Virus record (IMG/VR): IMGVR_UViG_3300011115_000879
Location: 95,568-159,567 of that record
Origin: a virus
Length of the DNA: 64,000 nucleotides
Strand: one strand, 5' to 3'
Part shown: one piece after another, positions 105 through 40,702 of the stretch
Layout of the letters: each line of letters begins with the position of its first letter
Position numbering within the stretch: the stretch's first letter is position 1
Program-made: the position numbers and the translations under genes
Notes under the pieces: model-generated
Seen by the model: the letters and a program-made list of their open reading frames with translations, nothing else
Told to the model about the DNA's origin: nothing
Database searches by the model: none

Positions 105-1031
105 ATGAAACAACCAATTAACGAAATTAAAAGAATGCAGCAATTAGCTGGTCTTATTACTGAATCACAGTTAAATGAAGTAGAATCGTCTTTACAAACA
201 TATTTAACAAGTATAGAAAAAAATTTAAAAAGTAAACCTGAAGAATTAACAAAAAAGATTACAGATTATTTACATTCTGTTTTTGTTGTAGGAAACGGAA
301 TACCAGGAGTTATAAGTGTCCCTAATCATATATACTATGTTATCCCAAGTAAAAAAGGTGATAACTTTATAACAGTAATGGGATACACAGATAGAGATAA
401 AGGATTTATAGTTAATGATCAAATTTTAAAATGGTTGGTAAGCGCAGATCCATTTTTAAGTAATGAGGCCGCTGAAAAAGTAGTACAATCTTACATACAA
501 GATTCAAAATTAAATACTGGAGGAAAATGGGGAGGATTTGAAAAAATGGGGGATATGTTGAAAAATCAATTTGAAACTAATAAAAAACCAGCAACTGAAC
601 CACAACAAGAATCACAACTAAATGAATACGACGAATATGATGACATCGACACACCAGAATTTGATGACGATCACGACATAGATGCTCAAAAGAAATTCGA
701 TGATATGATAGTAGACGTACCAAGACTACATCAATTGATAAGTAGCTCTCATCACAGAGGAAAAGAAGTAACAATAAATGGTGTTAAAGTTACAGATGTA
801 ACTGGAATAGGAAACATTTTTCTAGAAAATGGTGAAAAATTAAATAGTAAAGAATTTGCTAATGGTGTTCCTGATATCAAAATCAATAACGAACCAATTA
901 ACATTCCATTCACATCATCAAAACCACCAGCACCATTAAATTATAAATCAAGTGATGTATACCCTGCTGGAAGTTATATGGATGAAGTGGTTAATAAAGC
1001 TTTAAAAGAACACCGCAGACAACAAAAATAA
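105..1031 (+). CDS. Putative internal head (cargo) protein with N-terminal tag MKQPINEIKRMQQLAGLITE
   Basis: 308-aa ORF with its own ATATTTAT motif (81-88) and a downstream hairpin (1059-1085). N-terminus is shared with 40193..40702 and resembles the scaffold C-terminus. ESQLNE occurs twice. Confidence 0.55.
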   Translation: MKQPINEIKRMQQLAGLITESQLNEVESSLQTYLTSIEKNLKSKPEELTKKITDYLHSVFVVGNGIPGVISVPNHIYYVIPSKKGDNFITVMGYTDRDKGFIVNDQILKWLVSADPFLSNEAAEKVVQSYIQDSKLNTGGKWGGFEKMGDMLKNQFETNKKPATEPQQESQLNEYDEYDDIDTPEFDDDHDIDAQKKFDDMIVDVPRLHQLISSSHHRGKEVTINGVKVTDVTGIGNIFLENGEKLNSKEFANGVPDIKINNEPINIPFTSSKPPAPLNYKSSDVYPAGSYMDEVVNKALKEHRRQQK

Positions 1032-1058
1032 CCCCTTTATATATAGAATATATAAACC

Positions 1059-1085
1059 GACGCCTCCCCTAAAAAGGAGGCGTTT
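1059..1085 (+). terminator. Intrinsic terminator-like hairpin
   Basis: GACGCCTCC-cctaaaaa-GGAGGCGTT followed by T-rich sequence. Confidence 0.65.
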
Positions 1086-1241
1086 CGCTTTGCGGTTTTC
1101 CATACTTACACATATTTATTACTAGCCTATAATAGCTACCCACATCACAACTCCCCATGGTAGCTCGGCATTTTATAAACCCCACTATTAAGATTCATAA
1201 TAATCTTATTTCCGTAAAATAAATTTAAGGAGAAAATCACA

Positions 1242-2306
1242 ATGAGTACAAACAAAAATTTGTTCAAAGAAGCAATCGCTGACGCTAAAGCCGTTCGTGA
1301 AGCTGCGTTAGCAAACGCAAAAGTTGCCCTTGAAGAAGCTTTGACTCCGAAACTTCAATCTATGTTATCTGCAAAGTTACAAGAAATGGAGTCATACGAA
1401 GAAGGTGCAATGGGTGGCTACACAGATGAAAATCTGGATGAAGAAGATTACATGCAACCTTTAAACACAGCTGACGAAATGGGTCAGTCTGGTTTCGGAG
1501 CTAGAGAGCAAGGTAAACCTGGTTTTGGAGATTTAGGTTTTGAAGAAGAAGATTTGGAAGAAGATTTCGATTTATCTGAAATTTTAGCTGAACTTAACGA
1601 AGCTGATGAAGAAGAAGCTGAGGAAGAAGGCGAAGAAGAAGAGGATGAAGAGGAAGAAGAAGAAGAATCTGAAGAAGGCGAAAACGTTGCTGACATGTCT
1701 GTTGAAGACTTAAAAGATCTTATCAAATCAATCGTTGATCAAGAATTGGAAGCTGAAGAAGCAGAAACACCTGCTGAAGAAGAAGCTGAATATGCTGATG
1801 GCGAAGAAGCTGGTGAAGAAGCAGGCAACGAAGACGAAATCGATTTAGAAGAATTACTTGCTGAATTAGATTCTTTAGGTGAAAATGATGACGAAGACGA
1901 TATCATGGAAGCTAAAAAGAAAGCTAAAGACACTAAGAAAGAAAAAGAAGCTAAAGAAGAAATGAAAGAAGCAGTAGCTACTATCAATGCTCTTCGTAAA
2001 GAAATGAACGAAGTTAATTTATTAAACGCTAAATTACTTTACGTAAACAAAATCTTCAAAGCTAAGAATTTAACTGAATCACAAAAAGTAAAAGTAATTG
2101 CTTCATTTGATAAAGCAACTAACGTTAAAGAAGCTAAAGTAGTATTCGAATCATTAAATAGTGCTTTACGTGCACCTGCTAAAAAAGCAATTAAAGAATC
2201 CTTTGGATTTGCTTCAAAAGCATCAGGTGTTGCTCAAAACAGAACAATAGTTGAATCAAACGATGCTATTAAACGTATGCAAAAACTTGCAAACATCATT
2301 AAATAA
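1242..2306 (+). CDS. Prohead core/scaffold protein (T4 gp22-like)
   Basis: Very acidic, coiled-coil-like 354-aa protein directly upstream of the major capsid gene, with many (L/I/M)xE sites (LNEA, IMEA, LTES, IKES, IVES) and C-terminal IKRMQKLANIIK. Confidence 0.8.
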   Translation: MSTNKNLFKEAIADAKAVREAALANAKVALEEALTPKLQSMLSAKLQEMESYEEGAMGGYTDENLDEEDYMQPLNTADEMGQSGFGAREQGKPGFGDLGFEEEDLEEDFDLSEILAELNEADEEEAEEEGEEEEDEEEEEEESEEGENVADMSVEDLKDLIKSIVDQELEAEEAETPAEEEAEYADGEEAGEEAGNEDEIDLEELLAELDSLGENDDEDDIMEAKKKAKDTKKEKEAKEEMKEAVATINALRKEMNEVNLLNAKLLYVNKIFKAKNLTESQKVKVIASFDKATNVKEAKVVFESLNSALRAPAKKAIKESFGFASKASGVAQNRTIVESNDAIKRMQKLANIIK

Positions 2307-2334
2307 TTTAATTAACAAACAAAACTCGTTTAAA

Positions 2335-3960
2335 ATGAACGTACAACAATTATTAGAATCATCAAACCAATACAAAACGGTTTCTGATGATGCAAAAAAA
2401 CTTAGTTCCAAGTGGACTAGATCGGGCCTCTTAGAAGGTATTAAAGGCGAAAACGATCGCAATACTATGGCCATGTTGCTTGAAAATCAAGCAAAACAAT
2501 TAGTAACTGAAGCCTCTTCAACTGGTACTGCCTCTCCAGGTAGTGGTGGTTATAATGGTGAATCTTGGAATGGCGTTGCCTTACCATTAGTTCGTCGTGT
2601 ATTCGGTGAAATCGCTGCTAAAGAATTCGTTAGTGTACAACCAATGAACTTACCTTCAGGTCTTGTATTTTATCTTGACTTTAAGTACGGTACTGGTGTT
2701 AAACCATTTGCTCAAAATAGTTCTTTGTATGGCGCTAACGCAACTACAAACGTAACTGATATCGCTTCTGCTTCATTATATGGTGCTGGTAGATTTGGTT
2801 ACTCACTTAACCCATATACAGCTTCTGTAGCTTCTATTTCTTCATCTCTTACTTGGACTGATTTTAATTTTGATGCTGATTATTCAGCTTCTGCCGCTGC
2901 TGGTACTTACAGAAAAATTCAAGTTCCTTTACCGGCTGGATACGATACAAATGGTGTTCGTGCTTTTACAGTTACTTCAGGTTCAACTGATTTACAAGTT
3001 TTAAGTGCATTTACAACTGTAGCTAGTAATACTGGTTCTTTCATTGTAACTGGTTCTTTACTTGCTGGTGTTGTTGGTACTGGTGTAGGTAACTTAATTT
3101 TATCTTATACATTTGCTCCTCAAGATTCTGGTAGTGGTCAATTCCGTGGTGATTTTGAAGACGGCGTTACTAAGAATCCAGGTACTGCTGCTCCATCTAC
3201 AATTGCAATCCCAGAAATTAACGTACAGTTAAAATCTGAACCAATCGTTGCTAAAACTCGTAAGTTGAAAGCACAATGGACACCAGAATTTGCTCAAGAT
3301 TTGAACGCTTACCATAGTGTTGATGCTGAAGCTGAATTAACTGGTATCTTATCTCAATACATTTCAATGGAAATTGATTTGGAATTGATGGATATGTTGA
3401 TTCAAAATGCATTCACTGTTGATTACTGGAGCGCTCAAAACAATACTACTGTTACTGCTGCTGGTGGTGTAGTTGCAAATGCTGCTGCTCAATCCTTCTA
3501 TAACACACAAGGTGGATGGTTCCAAACTTTAGGTACTAAATTACAAAAAGTTAGTAACAAAATTCATCAATTGACATTACGCGGTGGCGCTAATTTCATG
3601 GTAGTTTCTCCAACAGTATCTACTATTTTGGAATCAATTCCAGGATTTGCTGCTGATGGTGATGGTGATAAAATGGAATACAACTTTGGTATTCAAAAGA
3701 TTGGTAGCTTGAACAGTCGTTACAAGGTTTACAAAAACCCATACATGACTGAAAATGTTATCTTGTTAGGATATAAAGGTGCTCAGTTCTTGGAATGTGG
3801 TGCTGTATTTGCTCCATACGTTCCATTGATCATGACTCCATTATTGTATGATCCAACTACATTTACTCCACGTAAAGGTCTTATGACTCGTTACGCGAAG
3901 AAAATGATCCGTCCTGATTACTACGGTAAGATCTATGTTAGTGGTTTGAACACTATCTAA
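2335..3960 (+). CDS. Major capsid protein, copy 1 (T4 gp23-like)
   Basis: gp23 motifs LLENQ, LPLVRR, VSVQPM..PSGLVF, AKTRKLKA.WT.E.AQDL.AYH..DAE.EL, APYVPL, F.PRKGLMTRYA. Start set at ATG 2335 (MNVQQLLES) by alignment with copy 2. Confidence 0.95.
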   Translation: MNVQQLLESSNQYKTVSDDAKKLSSKWTRSGLLEGIKGENDRNTMAMLLENQAKQLVTEASSTGTASPGSGGYNGESWNGVALPLVRRVFGEIAAKEFVSVQPMNLPSGLVFYLDFKYGTGVKPFAQNSSLYGANATTNVTDIASASLYGAGRFGYSLNPYTASVASISSSLTWTDFNFDADYSASAAAGTYRKIQVPLPAGYDTNGVRAFTVTSGSTDLQVLSAFTTVASNTGSFIVTGSLLAGVVGTGVGNLILSYTFAPQDSGSGQFRGDFEDGVTKNPGTAAPSTIAIPEINVQLKSEPIVAKTRKLKAQWTPEFAQDLNAYHSVDAEAELTGILSQYISMEIDLELMDMLIQNAFTVDYWSAQNNTTVTAAGGVVANAAAQSFYNTQGGWFQTLGTKLQKVSNKIHQLTLRGGANFMVVSPTVSTILESIPGFAADGDGDKMEYNFGIQKIGSLNSRYKVYKNPYMTENVILLGYKGAQFLECGAVFAPYVPLIMTPLLYDPTTFTPRKGLMTRYAKKMIRPDYYGKIYVSGLNTI

Positions 3961-3973
3961 TATAATAACATAA

Positions 3974-4005
3974 AAAACGGCTGGGTGTAACAACCTGGCC
4001 GTTTT
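3974..4005 (+). terminator. Terminator hairpin between the two capsid genes
   Basis: AAAACGGCTGGGT-gtaaca-ACCTGGCCGTTTT with a following T-rich tract. Confidence 0.7.
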
Positions 4006-4033
4006 ATTTAATAACACATTCAATTCATTTAAA

Positions 4034-5737
4034 ATGAATATTCAATCTCTATTAGAATCATCAAACCAATATAAAACGGTTTCTGATGATGCAAAAAAAC
4101 TTAGCACCAAATGGGCTAAGTCTGGCCTTTTAGAAGGCATTAAAAGTGAGAATGATCGTAATACGTTATCTATGTTGCTTGAAAACCAAGCAAAACAACT
4201 TGTAACTGAAGCTTCATCTACAGGTACAGCAGCCGCGGGTGCTGGATCTTATAGTGGTGAAAGTTGGAACGGAGTTGCATTGCCTCTCGTACGTAGAGTA
4301 TTTGGTGAAATTGCAGCAAAAGAATTCGTTTCAGTTCAACCAATGAACTTACCTTCAGGTCTTGTATTTTATCTTGATTTTAAATATGGCACAAATGATG
4401 TTCACTTCAATAACGGTGATTCATTATATGGTGCCAATGCAACTAATAACGTAACTAACATCGCAGGTGAATCACTTTACGGTGCTGGTCAATTCGGCTA
4501 CTCAATCAATAACTTCTCAGCTTCTGTTACTTCTGTAACCGGTGCTTTAGCTACTTGGGTAGATTTTAACTTTAACGATGACTTCTCAGCTTCAGCTGCT
4601 AGTAGCCAGTATAAAAAGATTTTAGTTCCATTACCAACAACAGCCGATACAAATGCTGTTCGTTCATTTTTCATTAGTGGTAGTATTATATCTGGATCAG
4701 TAACAAGTTTTGGTGGGTACGGTGTAACTAATACATCTACTAATTTACTACAAGATTTTACTACTGTAACAAATAATACAGCTTCATTCTTATTAACAGC
4801 ATCTTTATTTACTAATAGTGTTGCTAGTGGTTCTAATCCTACACAAACAACACTTTTATACTTTACTGTAGCTCCAACAACTACAACTCGTGGTGATTTT
4901 GAAGATACTACTTCAGGTGGTGGTTCTGGTACAGCTGGTGGTAATGGTGGTTACCCATCTTTCCAATCCAATAGTACAATCGTTATCCCAGAAATTAACG
5001 TACAGTTAAAATCTGAACCAATTGTTGCTAAGACAAGAAAATTAAAAGCACAATGGACACCGGAATTTGCTCAAGATTTAAATGCATATCATAGTGTTGA
5101 TGCTGAATCAGAATTGACAGGAATTTTATCTCAATATATCTCTATGGAGATTGATTTAGAATTAATGGACATGCTAATTCAAAATGCATTTACAGTAGAT
5201 TATTGGTCAGCACAAAATAACACAACTGTTACTGCTGCTGGTGGTGTAGTTGCAAATGCTGCTGCTCAATCGTTTTATAACACTCAAGGAGGATGGTTCC
5301 AAACACTTGGTACTAAACTTCAGAAAGTATCTAATAAAATTCATCAATTAACACTGAGAGGCGGTGCTAATTTCATGGTAGTTTCTCCAACAGTATCTAC
5401 TGTTTTGGAATCAATTCCTGGATTTGCAGCTGATGGTACAGGTGAAAAACTAGAATATAACTTTGGTATCCAAAAAATAGGTTCATTAAATAGTCGCTAC
5501 AAGGTTTACAAAAATCCTTACATGACTGAGAATGTAATTTTATTAGGATACAAAGGTGCACAATTCCTAGAGTGTGGTGCTGTATTTGCTCCATACGTTC
5601 CATTAATTATGACTCCACTTCTTTACGATCCAAGTACATTCACACCTAGAAAAGGTTTGATGACTAGATACGCTAAAAAGATGATTCGTCCTGATTACTA
5701 CGGTAAAATCTACGTTAGTGGTTTAAATACTATTTAA
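4034..5737 (+). CDS. Major capsid protein, copy 2 (gp23-like paralog with a different insertion domain)
   Basis: Same gp23 motifs. Near-identical to copy 1 except in the central Ser/Thr-rich region. Confidence 0.95.
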   Translation: MNIQSLLESSNQYKTVSDDAKKLSTKWAKSGLLEGIKSENDRNTLSMLLENQAKQLVTEASSTGTAAAGAGSYSGESWNGVALPLVRRVFGEIAAKEFVSVQPMNLPSGLVFYLDFKYGTNDVHFNNGDSLYGANATNNVTNIAGESLYGAGQFGYSINNFSASVTSVTGALATWVDFNFNDDFSASAASSQYKKILVPLPTTADTNAVRSFFISGSIISGSVTSFGGYGVTNTSTNLLQDFTTVTNNTASFLLTASLFTNSVASGSNPTQTTLLYFTVAPTTTTRGDFEDTTSGGGSGTAGGNGGYPSFQSNSTIVIPEINVQLKSEPIVAKTRKLKAQWTPEFAQDLNAYHSVDAESELTGILSQYISMEIDLELMDMLIQNAFTVDYWSAQNNTTVTAAGGVVANAAAQSFYNTQGGWFQTLGTKLQKVSNKIHQLTLRGGANFMVVSPTVSTVLESIPGFAADGTGEKLEYNFGIQKIGSLNSRYKVYKNPYMTENVILLGYKGAQFLECGAVFAPYVPLIMTPLLYDPSTFTPRKGLMTRYAKKMIRPDYYGKIYVSGLNTI

Positions 5738-5764
5738 CATAACTTAACCCCGTAAGGTTAAAAT

Positions 5765-5798
5765 AAGAACCCAAGTCGCAAGGCTTGGGTTTCTTTTT
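5765..5798 (+). terminator. Intrinsic terminator
   Basis: AAGAACCCAAGTC-GCAA-GGCTTGGGTTTCTTTTT (GNRA loop, U-tail). Confidence 0.85.
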
Positions 5799-5827
5799 GC
5801 ATATTTATATAAAACAAATCATATAAT

Positions 5828-6499
5828 ATGTCTACGCAACAAGATGAAAAGTTTAAACAAAAGAAAGTTTTGAAAAACGAAATCAAGTATCAAATCCAAC
5901 TAAACGAAGAACAAAAAGAGGCAAAACGATTAATAAGAGAAAATCAAATCGTAGTGATAACAGGTAGAGCAGGCTGTGGTAAATCCTTAGTATCAGCTCA
6001 AACCGCATTAGACTTTCTATTTAAGAAAGAATGCGATTCTATACATGTTACACGTGCTGCTGTAGAAGTAGGCCACTCATTAGGATTCCTACCAGGTAGC
6101 TTAAATGAAAAATTTGATCCATACTTGGAAGCGTTTCAAGAAAATCTAATTAAATGCTATGACAAGGTTAAAATTAACCAACTTATCAACGACCAGAAAG
6201 TTATCGCTCTTCCTGTCCAGTTTATACGCGGAAAAACAGTGGATGATGTACTTGTGGTGGAAGAAGCACAAAATCTTACTAAAGCAGAAATGCTTGCTAT
6301 TCTTACACGACTTGGTAAGAATGGCCGGATTATAATCAATGGAGATAATGAACAAAAAGACATTAGAGATGAATTTAACGGTTTATCTTATGTTATAGAG
6401 TTATCAAAAAAGATAGAAGAAATCAAATGGATTAAACTCAAACACAACCATAGATCTGATATAGTAGGTAAGATACTAGATTATGAATACAGCAAATAA
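5828..6499 (+). CDS. phoH: PhoH-family ATPase
   Basis: Walker A GRAGCGKS, LGFLPGSLNEKFDPY, FIRGKT, EEAQN, LTRLG, GD..Q.D, RSDIV. Confidence 0.9.
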   Translation: MSTQQDEKFKQKKVLKNEIKYQIQLNEEQKEAKRLIRENQIVVITGRAGCGKSLVSAQTALDFLFKKECDSIHVTRAAVEVGHSLGFLPGSLNEKFDPYLEAFQENLIKCYDKVKINQLINDQKVIALPVQFIRGKTVDDVLVVEEAQNLTKAEMLAILTRLGKNGRIIINGDNEQKDIRDEFNGLSYVIELSKKIEEIKWIKLKHNHRSDIVGKILDYEYSK

Positions 6500-6543
6500 T
6501 AATAGTTTTATTATATTTATACGTGTTAAATACTAGTTAGACA

Positions 6544-8565: not shown

Positions 8566-8566
8566 T

Positions 8567-9187
8567 ATGGCTTATTCAATACGAAAAACATATTGGGCAC
8601 CAGGAGGTGAAGGATTAGGAGGTGGTGGAGGAATAGATGGCCCTTCATCAACAGCAACACCAGATGATGGAACACCCGCAACACCTCCTATAGACCAAGG
8701 TGGAGGAACAGAAACACCATCTGGAGGAGGAGCAGGACCAGCAGATACAGCACTTCAAACAGCAGTAGATTATAGTAATATGAGTGTAATGTATTACAAG
8801 ATCAATCTTGAAAGTACAAAAACTAATATGTATGGTGAGGCGCTAGAAAAATGGTATTACCCACCACTACAAACAAAATGTTTAATTACAAGGGATGCTA
8901 TAACAAATAGCGACGATGAATTTGGTGTAACTGTAGCTAATACTATAACAGTATCTATCCCTAGGATTACATTAGATGGATATCAATTCCTACCAGAAGT
9001 AGGAGATATATTAATGGATAGAGAGAAAATGTATGAAGTAAATAGTATAGACCAAAACTTTATAACATTACCTGGAGGATCAGGACAAGCTCAATCAAAT
9101 GGTACAGCAGGTGTTACTGTTATATTTGTATTAAGCTGTTACTTAACTAGACTTACAAAACTTAATTTAATAGAATATTACCAATGA
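8567..9187 (+). CDS. Neck/head-closure protein (gp14-like)
   Basis: YYKI...T..NMYGEA..K and PEVGDIL....MYEV.S motifs; adjacent to the neck gene. Confidence 0.55.
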   Translation: MAYSIRKTYWAPGGEGLGGGGGIDGPSSTATPDDGTPATPPIDQGGGTETPSGGGAGPADTALQTAVDYSNMSVMYYKINLESTKTNMYGEALEKWYYPPLQTKCLITRDAITNSDDEFGVTVANTITVSIPRITLDGYQFLPEVGDILMDREKMYEVNSIDQNFITLPGGSGQAQSNGTAGVTVIFVLSCYLTRLTKLNLIEYYQ

Positions 9188-9522
9188 TAAAATTAACAGA
9201 TTTACTATTAGAATCAACCAATCTGTTTAGAATGGATGCCCTAATTAAAACAACTACTGGTATAAACAAAGTAGAAATATATAATCAAATCAGAGCAATT
9301 ACTGGTGTGGTAGTAATGACTATAGAACAAAGCGAATATTTGGATAGCCAAGCAACAGATAAATTTGAATATTCTTTATTACATATTAAATATTTAGTAA
9401 CATCCGACCCTAAAACAGATATAGAGAAAATTAAAAAAGACGCTCTAATCACAAATAGAATACCAGGGCTATTACAATTTATACCAAGATTAAATACAGC
9501 TAAACAACTAGGAAAATATTAA
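9184..9522 (+). CDS. Hypothetical protein with MIKLTDLLLE N-terminal tag (putative head protein)
   Basis: 112-aa ORF; tag shared with 9527, 49171 and 49820. Confidence 0.55.
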   Translation: MIKLTDLLLESTNLFRMDALIKTTTGINKVEIYNQIRAITGVVVMTIEQSEYLDSQATDKFEYSLLHIKYLVTSDPKTDIEKIKKDALITNRIPGLLQFIPRLNTAKQLGKY

Positions 9523-9526
9523 TATA

Positions 9527-9874
9527 ATGATAAAACTAACAGATCTAATACAAGAATTAGACGTACCACAAAACATATATAAACCAGGAGTAAAACCAGA
9601 ATCTGATGATGAATTCATGAAAAAAGGATTCAAAATGAGTCAAACTACTGTTGATCCTGAAACCGGAGCTTCTACATCAAATGTAGAATATTTACCATCA
9701 TTTGAACAAATTCGTAAAGATATCATAATGACACGTAGAGAATTTCAACCATTTAAATTTTCATCTAATCCTGATATAGCTAAATTGGCTAAAGATATTA
9801 ATATGCACTTAACTAAAGCTTCTAACATGATTTTCGCTTTAGATAAAATGGTTGAATTACAAAGAAAAGGATAA
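9527..9874 (+). CDS. Hypothetical protein with MIKLTDLIQE N-terminal tag (putative head protein)
   Basis: 115-aa ORF; same tag family. Confidence 0.55.
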   Translation: MIKLTDLIQELDVPQNIYKPGVKPESDDEFMKKGFKMSQTTVDPETGASTSNVEYLPSFEQIRKDIIMTRREFQPFKFSSNPDIAKLAKDINMHLTKASNMIFALDKMVELQRKG

Positions 9875-9876
9875 CA

Positions 9877-13007: not shown

Positions 13008-13073
13008 TATTTATAGACAGCTTACATAAGCCGTAATATCAAGATATATATCTAACAAACTGATTCCATACAT

Positions 13074-28591: not shown

Positions 28592-28622
28592 TATTTTAAT
28601 ATTTATATCAAATAACAATACA

Positions 28623-28964
28623 ATGGCAATAATAGATCAATTATCAGAAAGCAACTTAAGCTTAGCAGGCAACGGTTTCAACCCACAACCTCATTCACCA
28701 GCCTGGGGATATGTAGATAATACTGGTAATCTCGACCCAGCAGCAAGTAGTCTACAAGACACATACTCAGTAAATGGTATCCCTAATGTTAAATTAGTAG
28801 ATTTTAACAAAAATGGTGTATCTAATGTAAACGCTGAGAGTAGATTAGATGAATTAGATTCTCGCGCTCCAAAATTAACACCACGCGGAGTAGTATCACA
28901 AGCATATAAATCAAGAACAGGCAATAGATACAAAGACTTAGGACCAGCAGGAGGACGCTACTAA
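28623..28964 (+). CDS. Hypothetical virion protein
   Basis: 113-aa ORF with own promoter motif in the baseplate cluster. Confidence 0.55.
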   Translation: MAIIDQLSESNLSLAGNGFNPQPHSPAWGYVDNTGNLDPAASSLQDTYSVNGIPNVKLVDFNKNGVSNVNAESRLDELDSRAPKLTPRGVVSQAYKSRTGNRYKDLGPAGGRY

Positions 28965-28974
28965 TACTACATAA

Positions 28975-31431: not shown

Positions 31432-31730
31432 TGGCACGATATTCAAACTCAACAATATTAAAAACATCAACAGGTACACCATATTATAGAGGTAAACTTT
31501 ACCCTATTATGCCATTATCTGAAGATGATAATTATGTTATCACAACAGTTGGAGATAGACTTGATAATTTAGCATATCAATATTATCGTGACTCCGAATT
31601 ATATTGGATTATATCAATTGCTAACAACAATATAACAAAAGGATCAATATTCCCCATACCTGGTACACAATTAAGAATACCAGGAAATATAAACCCATTT
31701 TTAAATCTATTCAGTCAGACCAATAGATAA
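31431..31730 (+). CDS. LysM-like baseplate wedge protein (gp53-like)
   Basis: GDRLDNLAYQYY.D..LYWII..AN......PG.QLRIP. Confidence 0.8.
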   Translation: MARYSNSTILKTSTGTPYYRGKLYPIMPLSEDDNYVITTVGDRLDNLAYQYYRDSELYWIISIANNNITKGSIFPIPGTQLRIPGNINPFLNLFSQTNR

Positions 31731-31735
31731 ATGTT

Positions 31736-34669
31736 ATGTCAATATTTAAAGATACATTTAAAAAAGGAATTAGTGACCAACTAAAGATACGCCAGGATGC
31801 TATAAATACTCGTAGTTTCCAAAATCTAACATACTTAAATTCGCGTAATGCGTGGATTAAAATGACATCTTCCGTTAATGTAGGAGGTACAGCAGATTTA
31901 GCTGTTAAATACATTCTACAGGGAGGAATTTTATCTGGGGGTAAATTAAGATCAGGATTAGGAGCAAATGGAGCTTATAATAATATTAGTCCAAATGGAC
32001 AAAATTATGGCCAAATGGACAATTCACGATCCTTAACAGCAGGAACCTCTGGTATAAGACCAATGCCTGGTATTACTGATATTAATGTTAAATCAAAAGG
32101 AGCCTATGGTTCATTAAGAGAAGTAACAGTAAATTTCCAATGTTGGGATATCCATCAATTAGAAGATCTAGAGCTACTATACATGAGACCAGGATATTCA
32201 GCTTTAGTAGAATGGGGTTGGTCTCCATATCTAGATAATAGCGGTAAACTTATATCTACAGTAGATACTACCCAAGTTAATATATTAAGCAACAGTGGAG
32301 GTAAGAAAACCAAAGAAGATGTATGGAAATCCATATTTGATAAATCATCAACAGATGGAAACTATGATGCTGTATATGGTATTATAAAAAACTTTGGTTG
32401 GTCAGCACGTCCTGATGGGGGGTATGACTGTCATTCTACGCTCATTACTATGGGTGAAATACTCGAGTCTCTAAAAATAAACCACGGTGATTTTACCTCA
32501 AAAATAAGTACAGAAGGGATATTCGGTAAATTAACTACCCCATTTGATGCTGACAGTAGTATTGCTAAATCCTACTCTCAAAACGCATTAGCAGGAGCAA
32601 TCAATGAATTATATTTGATAATGAAAGATAATGAAGCAATAGATAACCTTACAGGAAAATCATTTACCTTCAATTCAGAAACATATAACTTTTTTAGATT
32701 TGACGTTACTGTCGATAATGCTAAAAATACAGATAGCGATTTTGATGATGCTATCCAAATATATATTACTTTAAAAGATTTTATAAAACTACTCAATAAC
32801 CATATTACCCTACATGATAAAGTTAATGGTAAACCAATGGTTGAAGTATCTGTTACTGAAGGTATGCATATGGGTACACCGGGGGCTGATCTCTTATGCT
32901 TAGGACACCCGCTTCAGCTATCAACAGACCCTACAGTGTGTATGATAAAAAACCTAGCATGGACAAACCCAGAAGCTTTAGGATTTGCAGCAGGAACATT
33001 TGATGATTTTTCAACGATAAAAAATATTATGAATGGAATACCAGATGAATATAACTACTGGTATAATAAAGACTATACTACTACTCAATTTGGTATTATA
33101 GGAAACATATATGTTAATTTAGGATACATCTACTCACTAGTAACAAGTGATGACTTAGCATCACAAGATCCTAAAGAAAAAAAAGATATAGCACTGTTTG
33201 ATTTTCTAAAAAACATGATGAGCGGCATAAGTACTGCCATAGGAAATGTAGCTACATTTGAAATATTTGTAGATCCTCAGGATTCAATAGCTAGAATAAT
33301 AGATGTAAATTATGTCGATAGTACAAAAAGAAATGATGCTTACGATAACGCTACTATTATCGAAATGCAAAATACTAAATCAACAGTTAGATCATATAAG
33401 CTAGAATCACAAATATTCCCAGATCAAACAACAACGATAGCTATTGGTGCACAGGTAAAGGGTGGAGCACTAGGTTCAAACACAAACACATTAGTAGATT
33501 TTAATCAAAATTTAATAGATAGAATAATCCCTGTAAAAGAATTACCATCCGTCCAAACAACATCTAATGTAGATGCTGATCTTAAAGAACAAGTAAAGAA
33601 CTTAAAAGATAATGTTGCCCTTATAGTTAGCTTTCTCAACCAGATAGATGCAGATTGGTATGAATATTTTACTCAGGGTGATTTTGACACCAGTAATGCC
33701 TCTAAATATGCTAATGCTTTAAAAGATATTATTAACTTTTATACTTCTCTTGTAAAAAACGATAATAAAAATAGAAGTATTATCCCAACAAAATTATCCA
33801 TTGAGATGGATGGTATCGGGGGATTGGTAATAGGTAATCTATTTAGAATACCAGATGATTTATTACCAAGAGGATACAAGGGGGGAGGTGCAGGCCCCTC
33901 TAAAATAGGATATGTGCTCACAGGAATAGGTCATTCCATTCAAAACAATGATTGGAAAACTAATATGGATGCTCAATTTATCATATTAGATGAACCAAAA
34001 GGAGGATTATCGTTAGCAGATTTAGTTGCTATACAAACTATAACTAGAGCAGTAACTCAGAAAGAAGAAGAGGAAGCTGTTGTAGTAGTTAAAGAGGTAA
34101 AAAAAATAATAGAAGAAAAAAGTAAAACTCCTGTTGTTAAAGGAAGTAAAGGAGGAGGAGGTAATACTGGGGGAGCAACTAAAATTATTAATGGAAAAGT
34201 AAGAAAAAATGGAGATATAAATGACCTACTAGTACCTATCAGATCAGATCTATACAGCAGACATTGGAGCTCAGTATGTCAAAGTGATGGTAAACGTATA
34301 AGATTACAACCCGCTGCTATGCAAAATTTAGAAAAATTATTAACAGATGCATATGCCGAAAAAGTACTCATTAAGGTAAACTCAGCATATAGAACAAGAG
34401 GCGATCAAGATAGAGTATGGGCAGATCACTGTTCAAATGCACCCGGTACAGGAAAATGTAAAAAAACTGGAGAATCAGCAGCAGCAGTTCCCGGAACCTC
34501 AAATCATGGTTTTGGTTTAGCAGTCGATTTGGCCAATTCTGGTGGAGCTAGGATTAATCCAAATAAGACACCTAAAGAATGGAAATGGATACAGGCAAAT
34601 AAACATAAATATAGCTTTCAAAATATTGATAATTCTGGTGAATCACACCATTATAACTTTTTAGGATAA
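31736..34669 (+). CDS. Baseplate hub/spike protein, copy 1, with C-terminal M15-family (VanY-like) Zn peptidase
   Basis: RPMPGIT, V.F.CW...QLE.LELLYMRPGY...EWGW hub N-terminus; C-terminal NSAYRT, AAVPGTSNHGFGLAVDL, ESHH. Confidence 0.75.
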   Translation: MSIFKDTFKKGISDQLKIRQDAINTRSFQNLTYLNSRNAWIKMTSSVNVGGTADLAVKYILQGGILSGGKLRSGLGANGAYNNISPNGQNYGQMDNSRSLTAGTSGIRPMPGITDINVKSKGAYGSLREVTVNFQCWDIHQLEDLELLYMRPGYSALVEWGWSPYLDNSGKLISTVDTTQVNILSNSGGKKTKEDVWKSIFDKSSTDGNYDAVYGIIKNFGWSARPDGGYDCHSTLITMGEILESLKINHGDFTSKISTEGIFGKLTTPFDADSSIAKSYSQNALAGAINELYLIMKDNEAIDNLTGKSFTFNSETYNFFRFDVTVDNAKNTDSDFDDAIQIYITLKDFIKLLNNHITLHDKVNGKPMVEVSVTEGMHMGTPGADLLCLGHPLQLSTDPTVCMIKNLAWTNPEALGFAAGTFDDFSTIKNIMNGIPDEYNYWYNKDYTTTQFGIIGNIYVNLGYIYSLVTSDDLASQDPKEKKDIALFDFLKNMMSGISTAIGNVATFEIFVDPQDSIARIIDVNYVDSTKRNDAYDNATIIEMQNTKSTVRSYKLESQIFPDQTTTIAIGAQVKGGALGSNTNTLVDFNQNLIDRIIPVKELPSVQTTSNVDADLKEQVKNLKDNVALIVSFLNQIDADWYEYFTQGDFDTSNASKYANALKDIINFYTSLVKNDNKNRSIIPTKLSIEMDGIGGLVIGNLFRIPDDLLPRGYKGGGAGPSKIGYVLTGIGHSIQNNDWKTNMDAQFIILDEPKGGLSLADLVAIQTITRAVTQKEEEEAVVVVKEVKKIIEEKSKTPVVKGSKGGGGNTGGATKIINGKVRKNGDINDLLVPIRSDLYSRHWSSVCQSDGKRIRLQPAAMQNLEKLLTDAYAEKVLIKVNSAYRTRGDQDRVWADHCSNAPGTGKCKKTGESAAAVPGTSNHGFGLAVDLANSGGARINPNKTPKEWKWIQANKHKYSFQNIDNSGESHHYNFLG

Positions 34670-34671
34670 TC

Positions 34672-35193
34672 ATGAGGATAAGAATACCACAAAATCAAAT
34701 AATAACAGGTAAATATACTATAGGAAAGGAGTATGTGATATTATCTTCACATACTCCTTATCAAGGGTATTATTATGAATTAAATAATAAAACATTCGCT
34801 GGAAAAGAATTTAGTACTAAAGCTCCTGAAATAATAAAAATATTTTCTAATAAATTTAATTCTTTACTAAGCAATTCAAATACTTCTGTTTATGCTAAAA
34901 TATCTAAAATAAAATTAGATAACCAAACACCATCTTCTATTATATATCAAAATGATTTAAATGTTAGATATTTTTCATATCAAGTTATAAATAAGTTAAT
35001 TAAAGAAATAAATAAAGAAACTTTTGATAGATTTAAAAATAACCCATTATATATTATATTAGAATTATCATACACATCAGGATTTAATGAAATCGAACTA
35101 GATCAAGCCGAGCTTAAAGCACCCGGAATAAAATTATTTGCTCAATCTTCTTATACATCTCCTCTAACAGAAGATGATGGAACTATAGGTTAA
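34672..35193 (+). CDS. Hypothetical baseplate-region protein
   Basis: 173-aa ORF (YT.GKEY....Y.GYYY) between the two hub copies. Confidence 0.55.
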   Translation: MRIRIPQNQIITGKYTIGKEYVILSSHTPYQGYYYELNNKTFAGKEFSTKAPEIIKIFSNKFNSLLSNSNTSVYAKISKIKLDNQTPSSIIYQNDLNVRYFSYQVINKLIKEINKETFDRFKNNPLYIILELSYTSGFNEIELDQAELKAPGIKLFAQSSYTSPLTEDDGTIG

Positions 35194-35248
35194 ACAAAAT
35201 TATTAAATTAAATTCATTCCTAAACATATTAAACAATATATAGATGTT

Positions 35249-38200
35249 ATGTCAATATTTAAAGATTCATTTAAACAAGGAATTAAGGATCAGTTAAAAG
35301 TACGCCAGGATGCTATAAATACTCGCAGTCCCCAAAACTTAACATATATGAATTCACGCAATGCGTGGATTAAAATGACATCATCAGTTAACGTAGGCGG
35401 AACTGCTGATTTAGCTGTTAAATATATTCTACAAGGAGGAATTTTATTTAATAATAATTTAAGATCGGGATTAGGAGCAAATGGAGCCTATAATAATGTT
35501 AGTCCAAATGGACAAAACTACGGGCAAATGGGTAATTCAAGATCATCTACTGCTGGAGCTGGTGGTATAAGACCAATGCCCGGTATTACTGACATTAGCG
35601 TTAAATCAAAAGGAGCATACGGTTCCTTACGAGAAGTAACAGTAAATTTTCAATGTTGGGATATCCACCAGTTAGAAGATTTAGAATTACTATACATGAG
35701 GCCTGGATATTCTGCATTAGTAGAATGGGGTTGGTCTCCATACTTAGACAATAATAATAGTCTTATATATAATGTAGATACATCTCAAGTCAATATATTA
35801 GGTAATAATGGTGGTAAAAAAACTAAAGAAGAAGTATGGAAAGCTATATTTACTAAATCATCAGAAAACGGAAATTATGATTCCGTATACGGTATTATAA
35901 AAAATTATGGATGGTCAGCACGTCCTGATGGAGGATATGATTGTCATACCACCCTTATCACCATGGGTGAAATACTTGAATCTTTAAAGATTAATCATGG
36001 TGATTTTACCTCAAAAATAAGTACAGAAGGGATATTCGGTAAATTAACTACTCCTTTTGCCTCTGACAGTAACATTGCTAAATCCTACTCTCAAAACGCA
36101 TTAGCAGGAGCAGTTAATGAATTATATTTGATAATGAAAGATAATGAAGCAATAGATAACCTTACAGGAAAATCATTTACCTTCAATTCAGAAACATATA
36201 ACTTTTTTAGATTTGACGTTACTGTCGATAATGCTAAAAGTGAGGATAGTGATTTTGATCATGATGCTCAAATATACATTACCTTAAAAGATCTTATAAA
36301 ATTACTTAATAACCACATCATTTTACATGATGGTGGTACACCAATAGTAGAAGTATCTGTTACTGAAGGTATGCATATGGGTACACCGGGGGCTGATCTC
36401 TTATGTTTAGGACATCCTTTACAATTATCAACAGATCCAACTGTATGTCTAATAAAAAATCTAGCATGGAAAGATCCAGGATCTTTAGGATTTGCAGCTG
36501 GATTTACAGATGATTTTTCAACAATAAAAGGTATTATGGAGGGAATACCACCGGAATATGATTATTGGTATAATAAGGATTATACTAAAACTCAGTTAGG
36601 TGTTATAGGAAACATATATGTTAATTTAGGATACATCTACTCACTAGTAACAAGTGATAATCTAGCATCAAAGGATTCTAAGGAAAAAAACGACATTGCC
36701 TTATTTGATTTCTTAAAAAACATGATGAGCGGCATAAGTACTGCCATAGGAAATGTAGCTACATTTGAAATATTCGTAGACCCTCAAGATTCAATAGCTA
36801 GAATAATAGACGTAAATTACGCTGACAGCACAAAAAGGAGTGATGCTTATACCAATGCAGCCATCATCGAAATGCAAAATACTAAATCAACTGTCAGATC
36901 GTACAAATTAGAATCACAAATATTTCCAGATCAAACAACAACAATAGCTATTGGTGCACAGGTAAAGGGAGGTGCCTTGGGGTCAAATACAAATACACTG
37001 GTGGACTTCAACCAAAATCTAATAGATAGAATAATTCCTGTAAAAGAATTACCATCCGTCCAATCTACATCAAATCCAGATGCTGATCTTAAAGAACAAG
37101 TAAAGAACTTAAAAGATAACGTTGCCCTTATAGTTAGCTTTCTCAATCAAATAGATGCAGATTGGTATGAATATTTTAGAGGTGCAGGGGATTTTGATAC
37201 TGATAATGCTTCTAAATACGCTAACGCTTTAAAAGACATTATTAATTTTTTCACTTCACTTACAAAAAACGATAATAAAAATAGAGGTATTATTCCTACA
37301 AAACTATCTATAGAAATGGATGGCATTGGAGGACTAGTAATAGGTAACCTATTTAGAATACCGGATGATTTATTGCCAAGAGGATACAAGGGAGGGGGTG
37401 CAGGCCCATCCAAAATAGGGTACATAATTACTGGTATAGGTCATTCTATTCAAAACAATGATTGGAAAACTAATATAGACGCCCAGTTTATTATACTAGA
37501 TGAACCAATAGGAGGATTATCTTTATCAGATTTAGTTACTATACAAGCTTTAATTAGAACTGTATCTGCAAGAGTAGAAAAAGTATTAGAGGAAGTCATT
37601 ACAGATATTAAAACAATATTATCAATAAAAGGTAAAACTTCTACTAAAAGAAATGGAGGATCCACTACCGTTTGTAATGGAGCTTCAACAGCTACTGTAG
37701 ATCAAGTATATCCTAGATCTGTTAGTTTTTATGGAAACGCACCAGTAATAATACAATTTAAGGCAAATGGTATTCCTAACGTAACAGTAAAATTATCTCA
37801 ACAACCTGAAGTAAAATATTCAAAAACTATCGTAACTCCTCAAGACTATATATTAGCAGCTGAGAAAGTAATAACTAAAATAATACCAGGTGCTAGTAAA
37901 GAAAATAAAAAACAAGTTTTAATATCAGCATTTGCTATAAGCAGAAGTGAACAAGGATATGGAAAAGGTTTTAAAGGATTTAATAATAATCTATCAGGAG
38001 TAGAATCAAGTGGGTTTAGTGTTTTTAGTACATCCGATGTTGTAGGTAAAGTTAAACTTACTGAGGGGGGGACAGGTAAAGTTAAATATTACTATGCCTT
38101 TTCTAACCTTTCAGCAGGATTAACTCCATTAATATCAAGTATTGTAAAAAGAAATATGTTTGCTACAAAAGGCAACCCAGGAGAATGGACATGGCGTTAT

Positions 38201-38332
38201 TATAGAGATTGGAATGGGTATGGTGCTCGAACTAAAACTACATTCAAATCTGACTGTGATGTAGTAGAATCTCTATTATCTATTTATAAAGCCGCTGAAA
38301 CTCAGGTGAATAAATATAGTGTATATAGATGA
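35249..38332 (+). CDS. Baseplate hub/spike protein, copy 2, with C-terminal lysozyme-fold (GH73-like) domain
   Basis: First ~765 aa nearly identical to copy 1. Distinct tip AISRSEQG...FNNNLSGVE...YYAFSNL resembles the GH73 pattern A..ESG.G...NN.FG...F..Y.S. Confidence 0.7.
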   Translation: MSIFKDSFKQGIKDQLKVRQDAINTRSPQNLTYMNSRNAWIKMTSSVNVGGTADLAVKYILQGGILFNNNLRSGLGANGAYNNVSPNGQNYGQMGNSRSSTAGAGGIRPMPGITDISVKSKGAYGSLREVTVNFQCWDIHQLEDLELLYMRPGYSALVEWGWSPYLDNNNSLIYNVDTSQVNILGNNGGKKTKEEVWKAIFTKSSENGNYDSVYGIIKNYGWSARPDGGYDCHTTLITMGEILESLKINHGDFTSKISTEGIFGKLTTPFASDSNIAKSYSQNALAGAVNELYLIMKDNEAIDNLTGKSFTFNSETYNFFRFDVTVDNAKSEDSDFDHDAQIYITLKDLIKLLNNHIILHDGGTPIVEVSVTEGMHMGTPGADLLCLGHPLQLSTDPTVCLIKNLAWKDPGSLGFAAGFTDDFSTIKGIMEGIPPEYDYWYNKDYTKTQLGVIGNIYVNLGYIYSLVTSDNLASKDSKEKNDIALFDFLKNMMSGISTAIGNVATFEIFVDPQDSIARIIDVNYADSTKRSDAYTNAAIIEMQNTKSTVRSYKLESQIFPDQTTTIAIGAQVKGGALGSNTNTLVDFNQNLIDRIIPVKELPSVQSTSNPDADLKEQVKNLKDNVALIVSFLNQIDADWYEYFRGAGDFDTDNASKYANALKDIINFFTSLTKNDNKNRGIIPTKLSIEMDGIGGLVIGNLFRIPDDLLPRGYKGGGAGPSKIGYIITGIGHSIQNNDWKTNIDAQFIILDEPIGGLSLSDLVTIQALIRTVSARVEKVLEEVITDIKTILSIKGKTSTKRNGGSTTVCNGASTATVDQVYPRSVSFYGNAPVIIQFKANGIPNVTVKLSQQPEVKYSKTIVTPQDYILAAEKVITKIIPGASKENKKQVLISAFAISRSEQGYGKGFKGFNNNLSGVESSGFSVFSTSDVVGKVKLTEGGTGKVKYYYAFSNLSAGLTPLISSIVKRNMFATKGNPGEWTWRYYRDWNGYGARTKTTFKSDCDVVESLLSIYKAAETQVNKYSVYR

Positions 38333-38387
38333 TAAACAAATGGCTAAACTCTTATCGTATATTCAATCAAACAAAAGGTTATGAAAT

Positions 38388-39680
38388 ATGTTCTATATCA
38401 TCGAGCGCAAAGACCAATTAGACCAACTTGGACCATTCAACGATTGTCTCGTTAAATTCATCCAATACAACGACAATTATCACCCCAAATTAAGCAAATT
38501 AAGTTTAATCTATATTAGAGATATATCCGAACATAAAGGATATATTCTATGTCTAGATCACAACGAATCATTTGCTTTAAATACAAAAGAAACACTCAAT
38601 TGGTTATTAGGAAATACAGATAGATTATTTGTATTGAATAAGAAAGAAGCACTATATCACTTCCCCTACCCAGATAAACTATATGATGTCAATTTCATTG
38701 AAAATGTAGATTTATCCGCTGTAAATAATAACTGTGTCAATTATTATTATCGCAAACACAACAATTTACCAAACGTCAATACGCTAATTCCAATTAGTAA
38801 ACATTACGAAAACTGCGAGAATATATTCACTGCAATACTACCTACAATACGCAAATATCGCGTTGAAAACGTCGTTTATGCGTTTAATAACGGTCCTTTA
38901 ACGCGTGTATTTCACACAATAGAATCACAAGGTATTACTGTAGACAAACAATGCTTCATCGATTGCTATGGTGCTGATTTAAAAAATCCTGAATTTAACC
39001 TCAGCAAAGGAAAAATATATAGCCAATACAATCTATACACAACTACCGGAAGACCATCAAACACATATAATAGTATCAACTTTGCCGCATTAAATAAAAC
39101 AAATGGTGAACGCTTATGCTACAGACCAGCAAATGATATGTTTATTGAATTCGATATGCAGGGATATCATCCACGCCTAGTAGCTGAAATGATTGATTTT
39201 GAATTTACAGATAAAAACACATATGAAACGCTAGGTGAATTATTAGATGTAACAACACAAGAAGCTAAGGAATTAACATTTAAACAACTATATGGTGGGG
39301 TTTGGGATGAATATAGTAACAAACCATTCTTTAAGGATATTGTAACATTAACAGAAGGGATATGGGATGATTATCAATACTCCGGACAATATCCAACTAA
39401 AAATAAAATATTTATACGTAATGATGAAATGACACAATCTAAACTACTGAATTACATTATTCAGAGTAATGAAACGTCAACTAACGTTACCATATTAGAA
39501 CAAATATTAGACTATCTTAAAGATAAACAAACAAAATTAGTATTGTATACCTATGATGCATTTCTATTTGACTATAGTAAAGTAGATGGAAAACAATTAC
39601 TAATAGATATAACAAATCTAATCAAATACCCAGTAAACGTTAAACAGGGTATATCTTATCACGAACTAAATAAAATATAA
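38388..39680 (+). CDS. Family A DNA polymerase-like protein (short, divergent motifs)
   Basis: TTTGRPS, motif A EFDMQGYHPRL, motif B AKELTFKQLYG, NYIIQS.E, motif C LYTYDAFLFD. Confidence 0.75.
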   Translation: MFYIIERKDQLDQLGPFNDCLVKFIQYNDNYHPKLSKLSLIYIRDISEHKGYILCLDHNESFALNTKETLNWLLGNTDRLFVLNKKEALYHFPYPDKLYDVNFIENVDLSAVNNNCVNYYYRKHNNLPNVNTLIPISKHYENCENIFTAILPTIRKYRVENVVYAFNNGPLTRVFHTIESQGITVDKQCFIDCYGADLKNPEFNLSKGKIYSQYNLYTTTGRPSNTYNSINFAALNKTNGERLCYRPANDMFIEFDMQGYHPRLVAEMIDFEFTDKNTYETLGELLDVTTQEAKELTFKQLYGGVWDEYSNKPFFKDIVTLTEGIWDDYQYSGQYPTKNKIFIRNDEMTQSKLLNYIIQSNETSTNVTILEQILDYLKDKQTKLVLYTYDAFLFDYSKVDGKQLLIDITNLIKYPVNVKQGISYHELNKI

Positions 39681-40150
39681 TGAGTAACAAAATATCATTA
39701 GTGAACAATCCTAACATATTTATGGGTAATGAATGGCAACCCAACACAGATTTAATGAACAAACTATTTTGTACTTTTACCTTACTAATTGACTTAGAGG
39801 AGACAGTAACCGCGATTAACAGGAAATATTCAATATTATTTGGTAAAATATTTATCCTTGAATCACCACAGAGCGACGAATTGATATGCACATACAATAT
39901 CGATACTAACAACATGGCGACAACGCCAATGGATAATACAATCCTATTACATCGTAAAAAGGAATCCAATACATTATACACCATTAATGCCTTAAACACA
40001 TTGATTAAATCATTGAATGAAGGGTATTTAGATAAAAATTACATGGTGAATTGGGCTGACTATAAAAACAGTATATTATTAACTAATGGTCCTGAATTAA
40101 GGAAATTAGATACATCAATCCATAAAATAGTAGATTTTAGTAGAAATTAA
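39680..40150 (+). CDS. Hypothetical protein
   Basis: KLFCTF, ILLHRKKESNTLYTINALN. The true start may be downstream of the promoter motif at 39716-39723. Confidence 0.6.
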   Translation: MSNKISLVNNPNIFMGNEWQPNTDLMNKLFCTFTLLIDLEETVTAINRKYSILFGKIFILESPQSDELICTYNIDTNNMATTPMDNTILLHRKKESNTLYTINALNTLIKSLNEGYLDKNYMVNWADYKNSILLTNGPELRKLDTSIHKIVDFSRN

Positions 40151-40192
40151 TATTTATAGGCACAACCCATTACTTATATTTAATAAAAAAAA

Positions 40193-40702
40193 ATGAAACA
40201 ACCGATCAACGAAATCCGCAGAATGCAGCAATTAGCTGGGTTAATTGTGGAGGCATTTAATTCTTTTTTAGATACAGATATGGGAGGGTGGATAAGAGAA
40301 TATATTGATGATGTTGTTGAAGATAATATGGGCGAACCAGAATCATTAAATTTAGAATATCGTTCTGATTTTGATATAGCTTTTAATTTAGCTCTTTCTA
40401 AGCTTTCCCAAGAACAATTTCCATTATATATATCAGATGATTCTAAATTAGCTCCTGGATTTATTGAACCTAAAGGAATTGGATTTGTAATGAATAATAA
40501 TAAAGAAACAATAACACCAGAAATGGTTCAAATATTTAATAATAATTATGGTATAATTGATATTAACTATATTAGAGATTTCTTTACAAACGCAAATAAT
40601 TGGAAGATGATTACTGATGAAAATGATATATCTAATTATAAAAAATTATATTTAATTGATACTAAAAGTAATCAAATAGGTAATAAAGAAAGTTTCTTTT
40701 AA
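40193..40702 (+). CDS. Putative internal head (cargo) protein with tag MKQPINEIRRMQQLAGLIVE
   Basis: N-terminal 20 aa nearly identical to ORF 105; own ATATTTAT motif (40150-40157) although embedded in the replication module. Confidence 0.55.
   Translation: MKQPINEIRRMQQLAGLIVEAFNSFLDTDMGGWIREYIDDVVEDNMGEPESLNLEYRSDFDIAFNLALSKLSQEQFPLYISDDSKLAPGFIEPKGIGFVMNNNKETITPEMVQIFNNNYGIIDINYIRDFFTNANNWKMITDENDISNYKKLYLIDTKSNQIGNKESFF

Follow-up and report, generated by a model that had tools for sequence, protein, structure and literature searches.

Capsid address peptides in described systems

A capsid targeting sequence (CTS) of bacteriophage T4 was reportedly described by Mullaney and Black in 1996. 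It forms the N-terminal leader of the internal proteins IPII and IPIII (also of IPI and Alt) and is removed by gp21 (PMC9026906, PMC9958956). Cleavage by gp21 follows the rule L/I-x-Glu and is blocked by Asp (PMC9026906; for the rule also PMC9958956), and the receptor of the CTS has been described as unknown (PMC9958956). We analyzed a viral stretch of 64,000 nucleotides (hereafter the window), which comprises bases 95,568-159,567 of one 159,567-bp contig with 32% G+C (IMG/VR record IMGVR_UViG_3300011115_000879) and in which a peptide with the core RMQxLAG stands both at the N-termini of unrelated proteins (the tag) and at the extreme C-terminus of the protein encoded at the scaffold position (the tail). 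Judging from the sequences, this peptide is probably a detachable procapsid anchor, CTS-like in its action and derived from the scaffold tail. While the CTS principle is known, the link to a scaffold C-terminal tail, the use of the peptide at either terminus or between modules, and the scale of its occurrence are new.

Like the T4 CTS, the tag is a short leader that stands N-terminally on unrelated proteins and ends in a hydrophobic-x-Glu site (hxE) suited to an S77 protease; the head genes are likewise of T4 type and the cargo is variable. However, the tag is about 20 amino acids (aa) long instead of 10 and unrelated in sequence, the terminal hxE being all that it has in common with the T4 ipII and ipIII leaders. 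Unlike the CTS, it copies the C-terminal tail of a scaffold, occurs also at C-termini and between modules, and is often flanked by two candidate cut sites. In T4 itself (NC_000866; gp22 at L244:5118-5927; ipII and ipIII in L245), the CTS MKTYQEFIAE/A (slashes mark cleavage positions here and below) resembles the gp22 N-terminus MLKEQLIAE/A. Copying a scaffold terminus may be a general route to such tags; the T4 match is short, and half of it is cleavage consensus.

Other systems resemble this locus in part. In herpesviruses, UL26 and UL26.5 have a C-terminal tail common to scaffold and protease, which binds the inside of an HK97-fold shell, and an adjacent cut releases the scaffold. That tail is common to nested genes and is not a spread portable cassette, and the lineage differs. 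Encapsulin cargo-loading peptides, which are short terminal peptides on diverse cargo, also bind inside an HK97-fold shell, are uncleaved and involve no scaffold. The system described here is not encapsulin-like, since genes for portal, terminase, sheath and tube are present and a protease site follows the tag. In 80alpha, the scaffolding protein and CpmB of SaPI1 compete for one capsid site (PMC5644958), and the likeness lies in a conserved motif at the extreme C-terminus of the scaffold that is also found on non-scaffold proteins of the same genome. CpmB differs in being a satellite's size-redirecting scaffold and not cargo, and in that system no N-terminal, protease-removed label extends across many proteins. 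For DarB of phage P1, an anti-restriction cargo protein, the N-terminal 30 residues are enough to bring a reporter into the capsid (PMC9024508), but it is not described as a motif that many proteins have in common, nothing links it to a scaffold tail, and no separate scaffold has been identified in P1 (PMC9024508). In the giant phages phiKZ and SPN3US, head and ejection proteins also lose N-terminal propeptides to the prohead protease, and these propeptides are thought to target the prohead (PMC5694885, PMC10052503). They are, in contrast, mostly longer than 100 residues and protein-specific, are cut at A-x-E and have no confirmed scaffold counterpart (PMC5694885, PMC10052503).

Tag and tail copies in the genome

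Two candidate cargo genes on the + strand of the window carry the tag. The open reading frame (ORF) tagA (105..1031, 308 aa) lies between the protease and scaffold genes, and tagB (40193..40702, 169 aa) lies between the genes for a family-A DNA polymerase and a gp32-like protein. Their first 20 residues are 18/20 identical and read MKQPINEI(K/R)RMQQLAGLI(T/V)E, as an earlier reading of the window made from the sequence only (hereafter the sequence-only reading) had pointed out. The tags themselves are MKQPINEIKRMQQLAGLITE in tagA (105..164, + strand), with a predicted cut I-T-E/S at its end, and MKQPINEIRRMQQLAGLIVE in tagB (40193..40252, + strand), with a predicted cut I-V-E/A at its end. The same reading had held that the two bodies were unrelated and that the tag was matched by the end of the scaffold protein. 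Both points were borne out, since BLAST similarity between the bodies was nil and 8 of the 11 core residues of the tag are matched at the end of ORF 1242..2306 (+ strand). The product of this ORF, a very acidic protein of 354 aa encoded between the S77 protease and Gp23 capsid genes, ends in ...AIKRMQKLANIIK, with the tail DAIKRMQKLANIIK at 2262..2303 (+ strand). Seven residues ahead of the tail core, an I-V-E site (2247..2255, + strand) is the predicted cut that would release the tail from the scaffold body. The protein matched no Pfam or PHROG family, and we call it the scaffold solely from its gene position, its composition (acidity) and its conservation upstream of the capsid gene.

The tally of two tags was correct for the window and incomplete for the genome, which has four N-terminal tags plus further C-terminal tails. 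The third tag (genome position 88021) begins a 105-aa ORF directly upstream of the terminase gene, and the fourth (genome position 20505) belongs to a 287-aa ORF with a TTG start and reads ..INEAKRFQKLANILTE. A C-terminal tail was found on an 82-aa ORF (ct82; genome 81438-81686, L002:5439-5687), which ends in ..IAESKRMQKLANIN with the tail at about genome position 81657, and a divergent C-terminal copy was found on a 335-aa ORF (ct335), which ends in ..IRKMQYYAGISK at about genome position 87250. The bodies of the four tagged ORFs had no similarity to one another. In a six-frame scan of the whole genome, the pattern [KR][MWF][QK]xLA[GN][IL] had 6 sites, all of them at ORF termini, against 0.015 expected by composition and 0 in 20 codon-block shuffles. 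Moreover, a profile built from N-terminal tags alone, mostly from other contigs, ranked the four tags first and the tails of the scaffold and the 82-aa protein as the next-best matches in the genome. This excess of the core pattern, the unrelated bodies and the recovery of the scaffold tail by a tag-only profile indicate together that the observation is real and not a product of chance.

Three of the tags begin with MKQPINEI and are near-identical in DNA over approximately 48 nucleotides, while their flanks differ, which points to recent copying or gene conversion. As for the 82-aa tail protein, it belongs to a well-conserved family with at least 20 homologues among the loci examined, and in several contigs (e.g., L085, L086, L057, L084) its gene lies directly upstream of a gene with an N-terminal tag. 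Possibly, this small protein is part of the core.

Relatives and environmental distribution

The source virus is a T4-like myovirus of Flavobacteria. Its closest named relative is Flavobacterium phage vB_FspM_immuto (160 kb; hereafter immuto), with a capsid protein 67% identical, and a megablast search of phage records with the first 12 kb of the window gave no match. With a genome of only 159,567 bp (159.6 kb), it is not the jumbo phage that the sequence-only reading had taken it for. Scaffold homologues are encoded upstream of the capsid gene in immuto (ending in ..SRWQKLAGIIK), in Microcystis phage Mel-JY01 (..ERMKKLAGIVK) and in LR756508, a 484-kb uncultured phage (..SRMQKLADIS). They were also present in 8/8 IMG/VR contigs checked, where the gene upstream of the Gp23 capsid gene ends in the tail motif. 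In addition, the motif was found at 72 scaffold-like C-termini, and among the matches listed the scaffold tail was present in more than 70 IMG/VR contigs; its conservation at scaffold C-termini in relatives, which had been anticipated, is thus confirmed. The immuto genome encodes two N-terminal tags, on gp230 and gp083 (MKKQILSEQF[KR]RMQ[FK]LAGIITES..), and the bodies of these two proteins are not homologous to those tagged in the genome studied here. A scan of the entire Mel-JY01 and LR756508 sequences for M[QK]xLA matched their scaffold tails only and gave no N-terminal tags. The presence of the tail without N-terminal tags in these two phages suggests that the tail came first and that the tags were derived from it later.

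N-terminal copies on diverse, unrelated proteins of other phages had likewise been anticipated, and they were recovered both in IMG/VR scans and in a profile search of a protein database. Among the matches listed, a degenerate DNA pattern of the tag identified more than 119 IMG/VR contigs, often with two or three matches per contig, and 118 distinct tags were present in the IMG/VR loci. The tag-bearing contigs are fragments of phages of approximately 160-180 kb; Gp23 was found in 9/22 larger tag-bearing fragments and in both complete records, and tagged genes occupy the slot between protease and scaffold in L160, L163 and L165 too. A stricter, Glu-requiring pattern was used to scan 596 Gb of cellular genomes and gave 2 matches, one on a phage-like contig binned with a Flavobacteriaceae metagenome-assembled genome and the other within a protein by chance. 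Nearly absent from cellular genomes, the tag is specific to viruses. The profile search, performed with 50-aa alignment pieces on a collection of 5.8 billion proteins, returned 3,828 protein clusters at E<=1 among 8,000 candidates scored, nearly all of which are unnamed and have no Pfam domain. A tblastn search with the bare 20-aa tag gave no match, the query probably being too short, and the motif string was not found in the literature searched.

In one of these contigs (L165; G013:C1:29050-32300, reverse strand), the scaffold gene runs in frame into the capsid gene, as one open frame of 947 aa. At the junction (..NRWQVLAG-PYQDQLGV..), the tail core is kept and the first ~20 capsid residues are dropped. 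This open frame is either a natural fusion or an assembly artefact.

Candidate cut sites around the motif

A second IMG/VR scan used RMQKLAG-h-I with the following residues left unconstrained and yielded at least 113 distinct sites. Among the matches listed, 49 were N-terminal copies, every one of which (49/49) continued with x-Glu, 61 were C-terminal copies at which the protein ends (..RMQKLAGII(K)), and 3 were internal. The sequence-only reading had proposed that the tag is followed by hxE in agreement with the T4 gp21 rule, and this held in a scan that did not require Glu; a gp21-type S77 protease is encoded as well. All four tags in the genome and both immuto tags carry hxE after the motif. 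At the other terminus, [LIVM]xE was present upstream of 82/83 C-terminal tails and lay exactly 7 residues ahead of the core in 60 of them, the background at any spacing elsewhere in these Glu-rich proteins being 66%. About half of the N-terminal tags have an extra hxE 1-4 residues before the core (..ILSE/EFKRMQKLAGIITE/S), and with sites on both of its sides the cassette is often bracketed by two candidate cut sites. The predicted cut of the capsid protein itself, LVTE/A, has the same form as the sites of the tags. As far as the sequences tell, a protease-type site separates the putative anchor from the body whichever terminus bears it.

A second family of leaders was observed in the same genome. 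Eight ORFs start with MIKL and have hxE within about 10 residues (MIKLTDLLLE, MIKLTDLIQE, MIKLIDLLNE and others), which is the length of the T4 CTS. Four of them are in the window (9184-9522, 9527-9874, 49171-49809 and 49820-50206) and four more lie upstream in the genome. Leaders that can be clipped off thus seem to come in two kinds or more in this phage.

Tagged bodies and their modules

None of the tagged bodies of the genome, nor ct82 or ct335, belonged to a Pfam or PHROG family, and the body of tagA also had no match in the ESM Atlas. Of the BLAST matches to tagA in other contigs, nearly all stayed within the first 20-30 residues, and none extended into the body, the longest spanning residues 1-63 (L132). 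The string ESQLNE occurs twice in this protein, directly after the tag and again mid-protein ahead of an acidic stretch, an arrangement that fits two cargo modules on one tag, as in the database proteins P0002, P0004 and P0005. For tagB, homologues of the body in other contigs were all tagged, but with different tag subtypes, and the two body modules were circularly permuted among them, with module X always beginning directly after hxE. The AlphaFold2 (AF2) model of tagB had a predicted local distance difference test score (pLDDT) of 59.6, and a Foldseek search with it against PDB found nothing at E<=0.001. In this model, the tag forms a helix over residues 5-26 at pLDDT <50, with no confident placement against the body.

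The model of tagD, another tagged protein of the genome, had a pLDDT of 66.4, again with a helix in the tag at pLDDT <50, and the best match in a wide structure search (Z 6.3) was within the noise range. The tagD body (A[VI]E[VI]PTWL.GKLEDVH..) begins directly after hxE/A in three N-terminal contexts, namely behind a short tag in this genome, behind another tag subtype and an extra 85-aa domain in L106, and behind an untagged 290-aa domain in L074. The top database matches were multi-tag polyproteins (P0002, P0004, P0005, P0007). The same module can be the sole one after an N-terminal tag in one phage and come second, after an internal tag, in another (P0044 compared with P0002; tagB compared with P0004). 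Taken together, the alignments indicate that the bodies behave as modules bounded by hxE. One recurrent tagged body, ..GKFIIDGHHRW.. (P0002, P0004, P0018), is reminiscent of ParB/sulfiredoxin-like motifs, with no Pfam match.

Proposed role of the peptide and alternative explanations

The older context of the peptide would be the extreme C-terminus of the scaffold-position protein in this T4-like branch, where the tail presumably ties the scaffold core to a prohead partner. As this partner, the Gp23-type capsid protein (its inner face or its N-terminal propeptide) would be most likely, with another core component as a possibility. In the lineage of Flavobacteria phages, copies of the peptide would have been added to unrelated proteins that evolve fast, most often at the N-terminus and in some cases at the C-terminus or between modules of polyprotein-like cargo. 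The anchor may be an amphipathic helix, as the AF2 models of tagB and tagD suggest at low confidence. Tagged proteins would be made late and would join the assembling prohead through the receptor of the scaffold tail, after which the S77 protease, encoded just upstream, would cut at the flanking hxE sites and free scaffold and cargo from the shell. The mature bodies would then stay in the head, in line with the accepted view of the T4 CTS (PMC9026906), and may exit with the DNA. What we infer is that the peptide binds, what it binds to, and that the tagged proteins are cut, packaged and ejected; the coat protein is a plausible receptor by analogy with 80alpha. More tentatively, we propose that the RMQxLAG cassette could be a position-independent, self-excising address on the very receptor used by the scaffold tail, so that cargo would load in competition with the scaffold. 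The sequence-only reading had already regarded the peptide as an address label taken from the scaffold tail; its sequence-level predictions that were tested all held, its placement among jumbo phages did not, and the idea beneath it is the known principle of the T4 CTS.

Several points weigh against a detachable anchor with a receptor shared by tag and tail. In BLASTP, the scaffold-position protein had no significant similarity to T4 gp22 (best E 0.59). The complete genomes have just 3-4 N-terminal tags each, which means a small cargo set per phage, and when Glu was not required in the search, about half of the tags had an hxE displaced by several residues. Some tagged multi-module relatives contain an NT5C nucleotidase domain, which is not an obvious head passenger. 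Covariation of tag and tail variants within genomes was looked for and not observed, RWQ scaffolds being found alongside RMQ tags, and a shared receptor thus gains no support from this side. No virion proteome of immuto or its relatives was found in the literature, nor a mapped N-terminus or a binding assay for immuto or the phage studied here. Finally, gp22 and the internal proteins of T4 purify together, and the literature names the scaffolding core as the target of the CTS (PMC9026906, PMC3012670), so that the receptor may be the core instead of the coat. The clip-off logic would then stay the same, with self-association of scaffold or core, the S77 protease or the portal in place of the coat protein and with cargo that co-polymerizes with the core. 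The resemblance between the T4 CTS and the N-terminus of gp22 fits such a variant, as do the small conserved non-scaffold proteins ct82 and ct335 that bear the tail as well. In P22, on the other hand, the C-terminus of the scaffold is the part that contacts the coat protein. The scaffold C-terminus of 80alpha also contacts the coat (PMC5644958). We consider a receptor other than the coat, and the core in particular, a serious alternative within the favored reading, if less likely than not.

Other explanations dispense with recruitment by the peptide or with the head altogether. The motif could be an extended recognition element (exosite) of the S77 protease that marks substrates and recruits nothing by itself. 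It always lies beside hxE sites, often with one on both sides, and the T4 protease is active only in proheads (PMC9958956). However, the predicted cut site of the capsid protein and the MIKL-type leaders are without the motif, which is thus not needed for cutting; its place at the very C-terminus of all scaffolds is more like that of an anchor than of a cutting signal, and a substrate would still have to enter the prohead to meet the active protease. We regard an exosite as unlikely. Given that one tagged gene lies within the replication module, that NT5C domains occur on some tagged proteins and that immuto encodes GroEL/GroES, the peptide might instead act outside the head as a helix that docks on a chaperone or on a complex of replication or nucleotide metabolism, its likeness to the scaffold reflecting use of the same chaperone. 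Such a role would leave unexplained why Glu is invariant at a set distance (49/49), why hxE is fixed upstream of the C-terminal tails, and why tagged genes recur between protease and scaffold genes and have the late-type promoter motif, and we judge it very improbable. The near-identity in DNA of the three MKQPINEI tags, which includes synonymous sites, could also mean that what the genes share at their 5' ends is a feature of the nucleic acid (an element of translation initiation or mRNA structure, or a relic of recombination) and that the peptide has no function. Yet across IMG/VR the peptide is kept while its codons vary (the pattern used was fully degenerate), the same peptide stands at C-termini, and recent copying or gene conversion would account for the identity within the genome. 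Folding of the RNA was no better than that of shuffles (z -0.7, -1.0 and +0.5). The variation of codons across contigs and the lack of detected RNA structure place the constraint on the peptide, and an explanation at the level of nucleic acid is highly improbable.

If the favored anchor is derived from the scaffold tail as proposed, the question of the T4 receptor becomes concrete, because a cargo label that visibly equals the C-terminal tail peptide of the scaffold reduces it to finding what the tail binds. A cultured relative for such work is immuto, which grows on Flavobacterium sp. LMO8. Head passengers in T4 include anti-restriction and host-takeover factors. A tag that is easily recognized and virus-specific could single out, among proteins that otherwise defy annotation, thousands of candidate head passengers, and the flanking cut sites and shuffled modules show how such cargo sets may diversify. 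Should tag and tail indeed share a receptor, this receptor, and hence the basis of core localization in T4-like heads, would be directly identifiable, and the thousands of tagged dark proteins in environmental viromes would form a catalogue of effectors of Bacteroidota phages that are packaged in the virion and probably injected.

Head genes, promoter-like motif and neighboring functions

The setting of tagA and the scaffold gene is a T4-type head module. The window opens with the prohead protease gene's 3' end (1..81, + strand), the entire gene being at genome 95019-95648 (L002:19020-19649). Its product matched Pfam PF03420 Peptidase_S77, the family of T4 gp21, above the cut-off (E 4.6e-31) and PHROG 207, head maturation protease (E 3e-57). 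Downstream of the scaffold gene are two major capsid protein paralogues of the Gp23 family on the + strand, at 2335..3960 (PF07068, E 1.5e-75) and 4034..5737 (PF07068, E 1.4e-76), which are 77% identical. Mapping onto mature T4 gp23 chains placed the predicted maturation cut of the first paralogue at QLVTE/A, and both proteins keep ..QLVTE/A where the mature gp23 chain starts aligning. Both tandem genes are full-length, and their products are near-identical in the N- and C-terminal thirds, with the differences concentrated at residues ~120-300; they are far closer to each other than T4 gp23 is to gp24. One of them may be a recent duplicate that serves as a vertex protein or provides an alternative surface domain. 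Portal and large terminase genes lie directly upstream of the window, which also encodes a gp32-like protein, PhoH, and tail sheath and tube proteins.

Each of the two tagged genes in the window has its own copy of the promoter-like motif AATATTTAT, in agreement with the sequence-only reading. One copy (80..88, + strand) lies 25 nucleotides upstream of tagA and the other (40149..40157, + strand), within the replication module, lies 44 nucleotides upstream of tagB. In the whole genome, 24 copies of the motif are on the + (coding) strand and the - strand has 2, mostly intergenic and 7-70 nucleotides ahead of ORF starts. Besides tagA, tagB and tagD, it precedes the portal, tail sheath, tail tube and endonuclease VII-like genes, and by this association only, it is probably a late promoter. 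The replication module also encodes a family-A DNA polymerase (window 38388-39680), whereas T4 has a family-B enzyme, and in immuto the family-A polymerase is annotated as two separate genes, gp001 and gp199. Genes for a 7-deazaguanine (queuosine-type) DNA modification are present in immuto.

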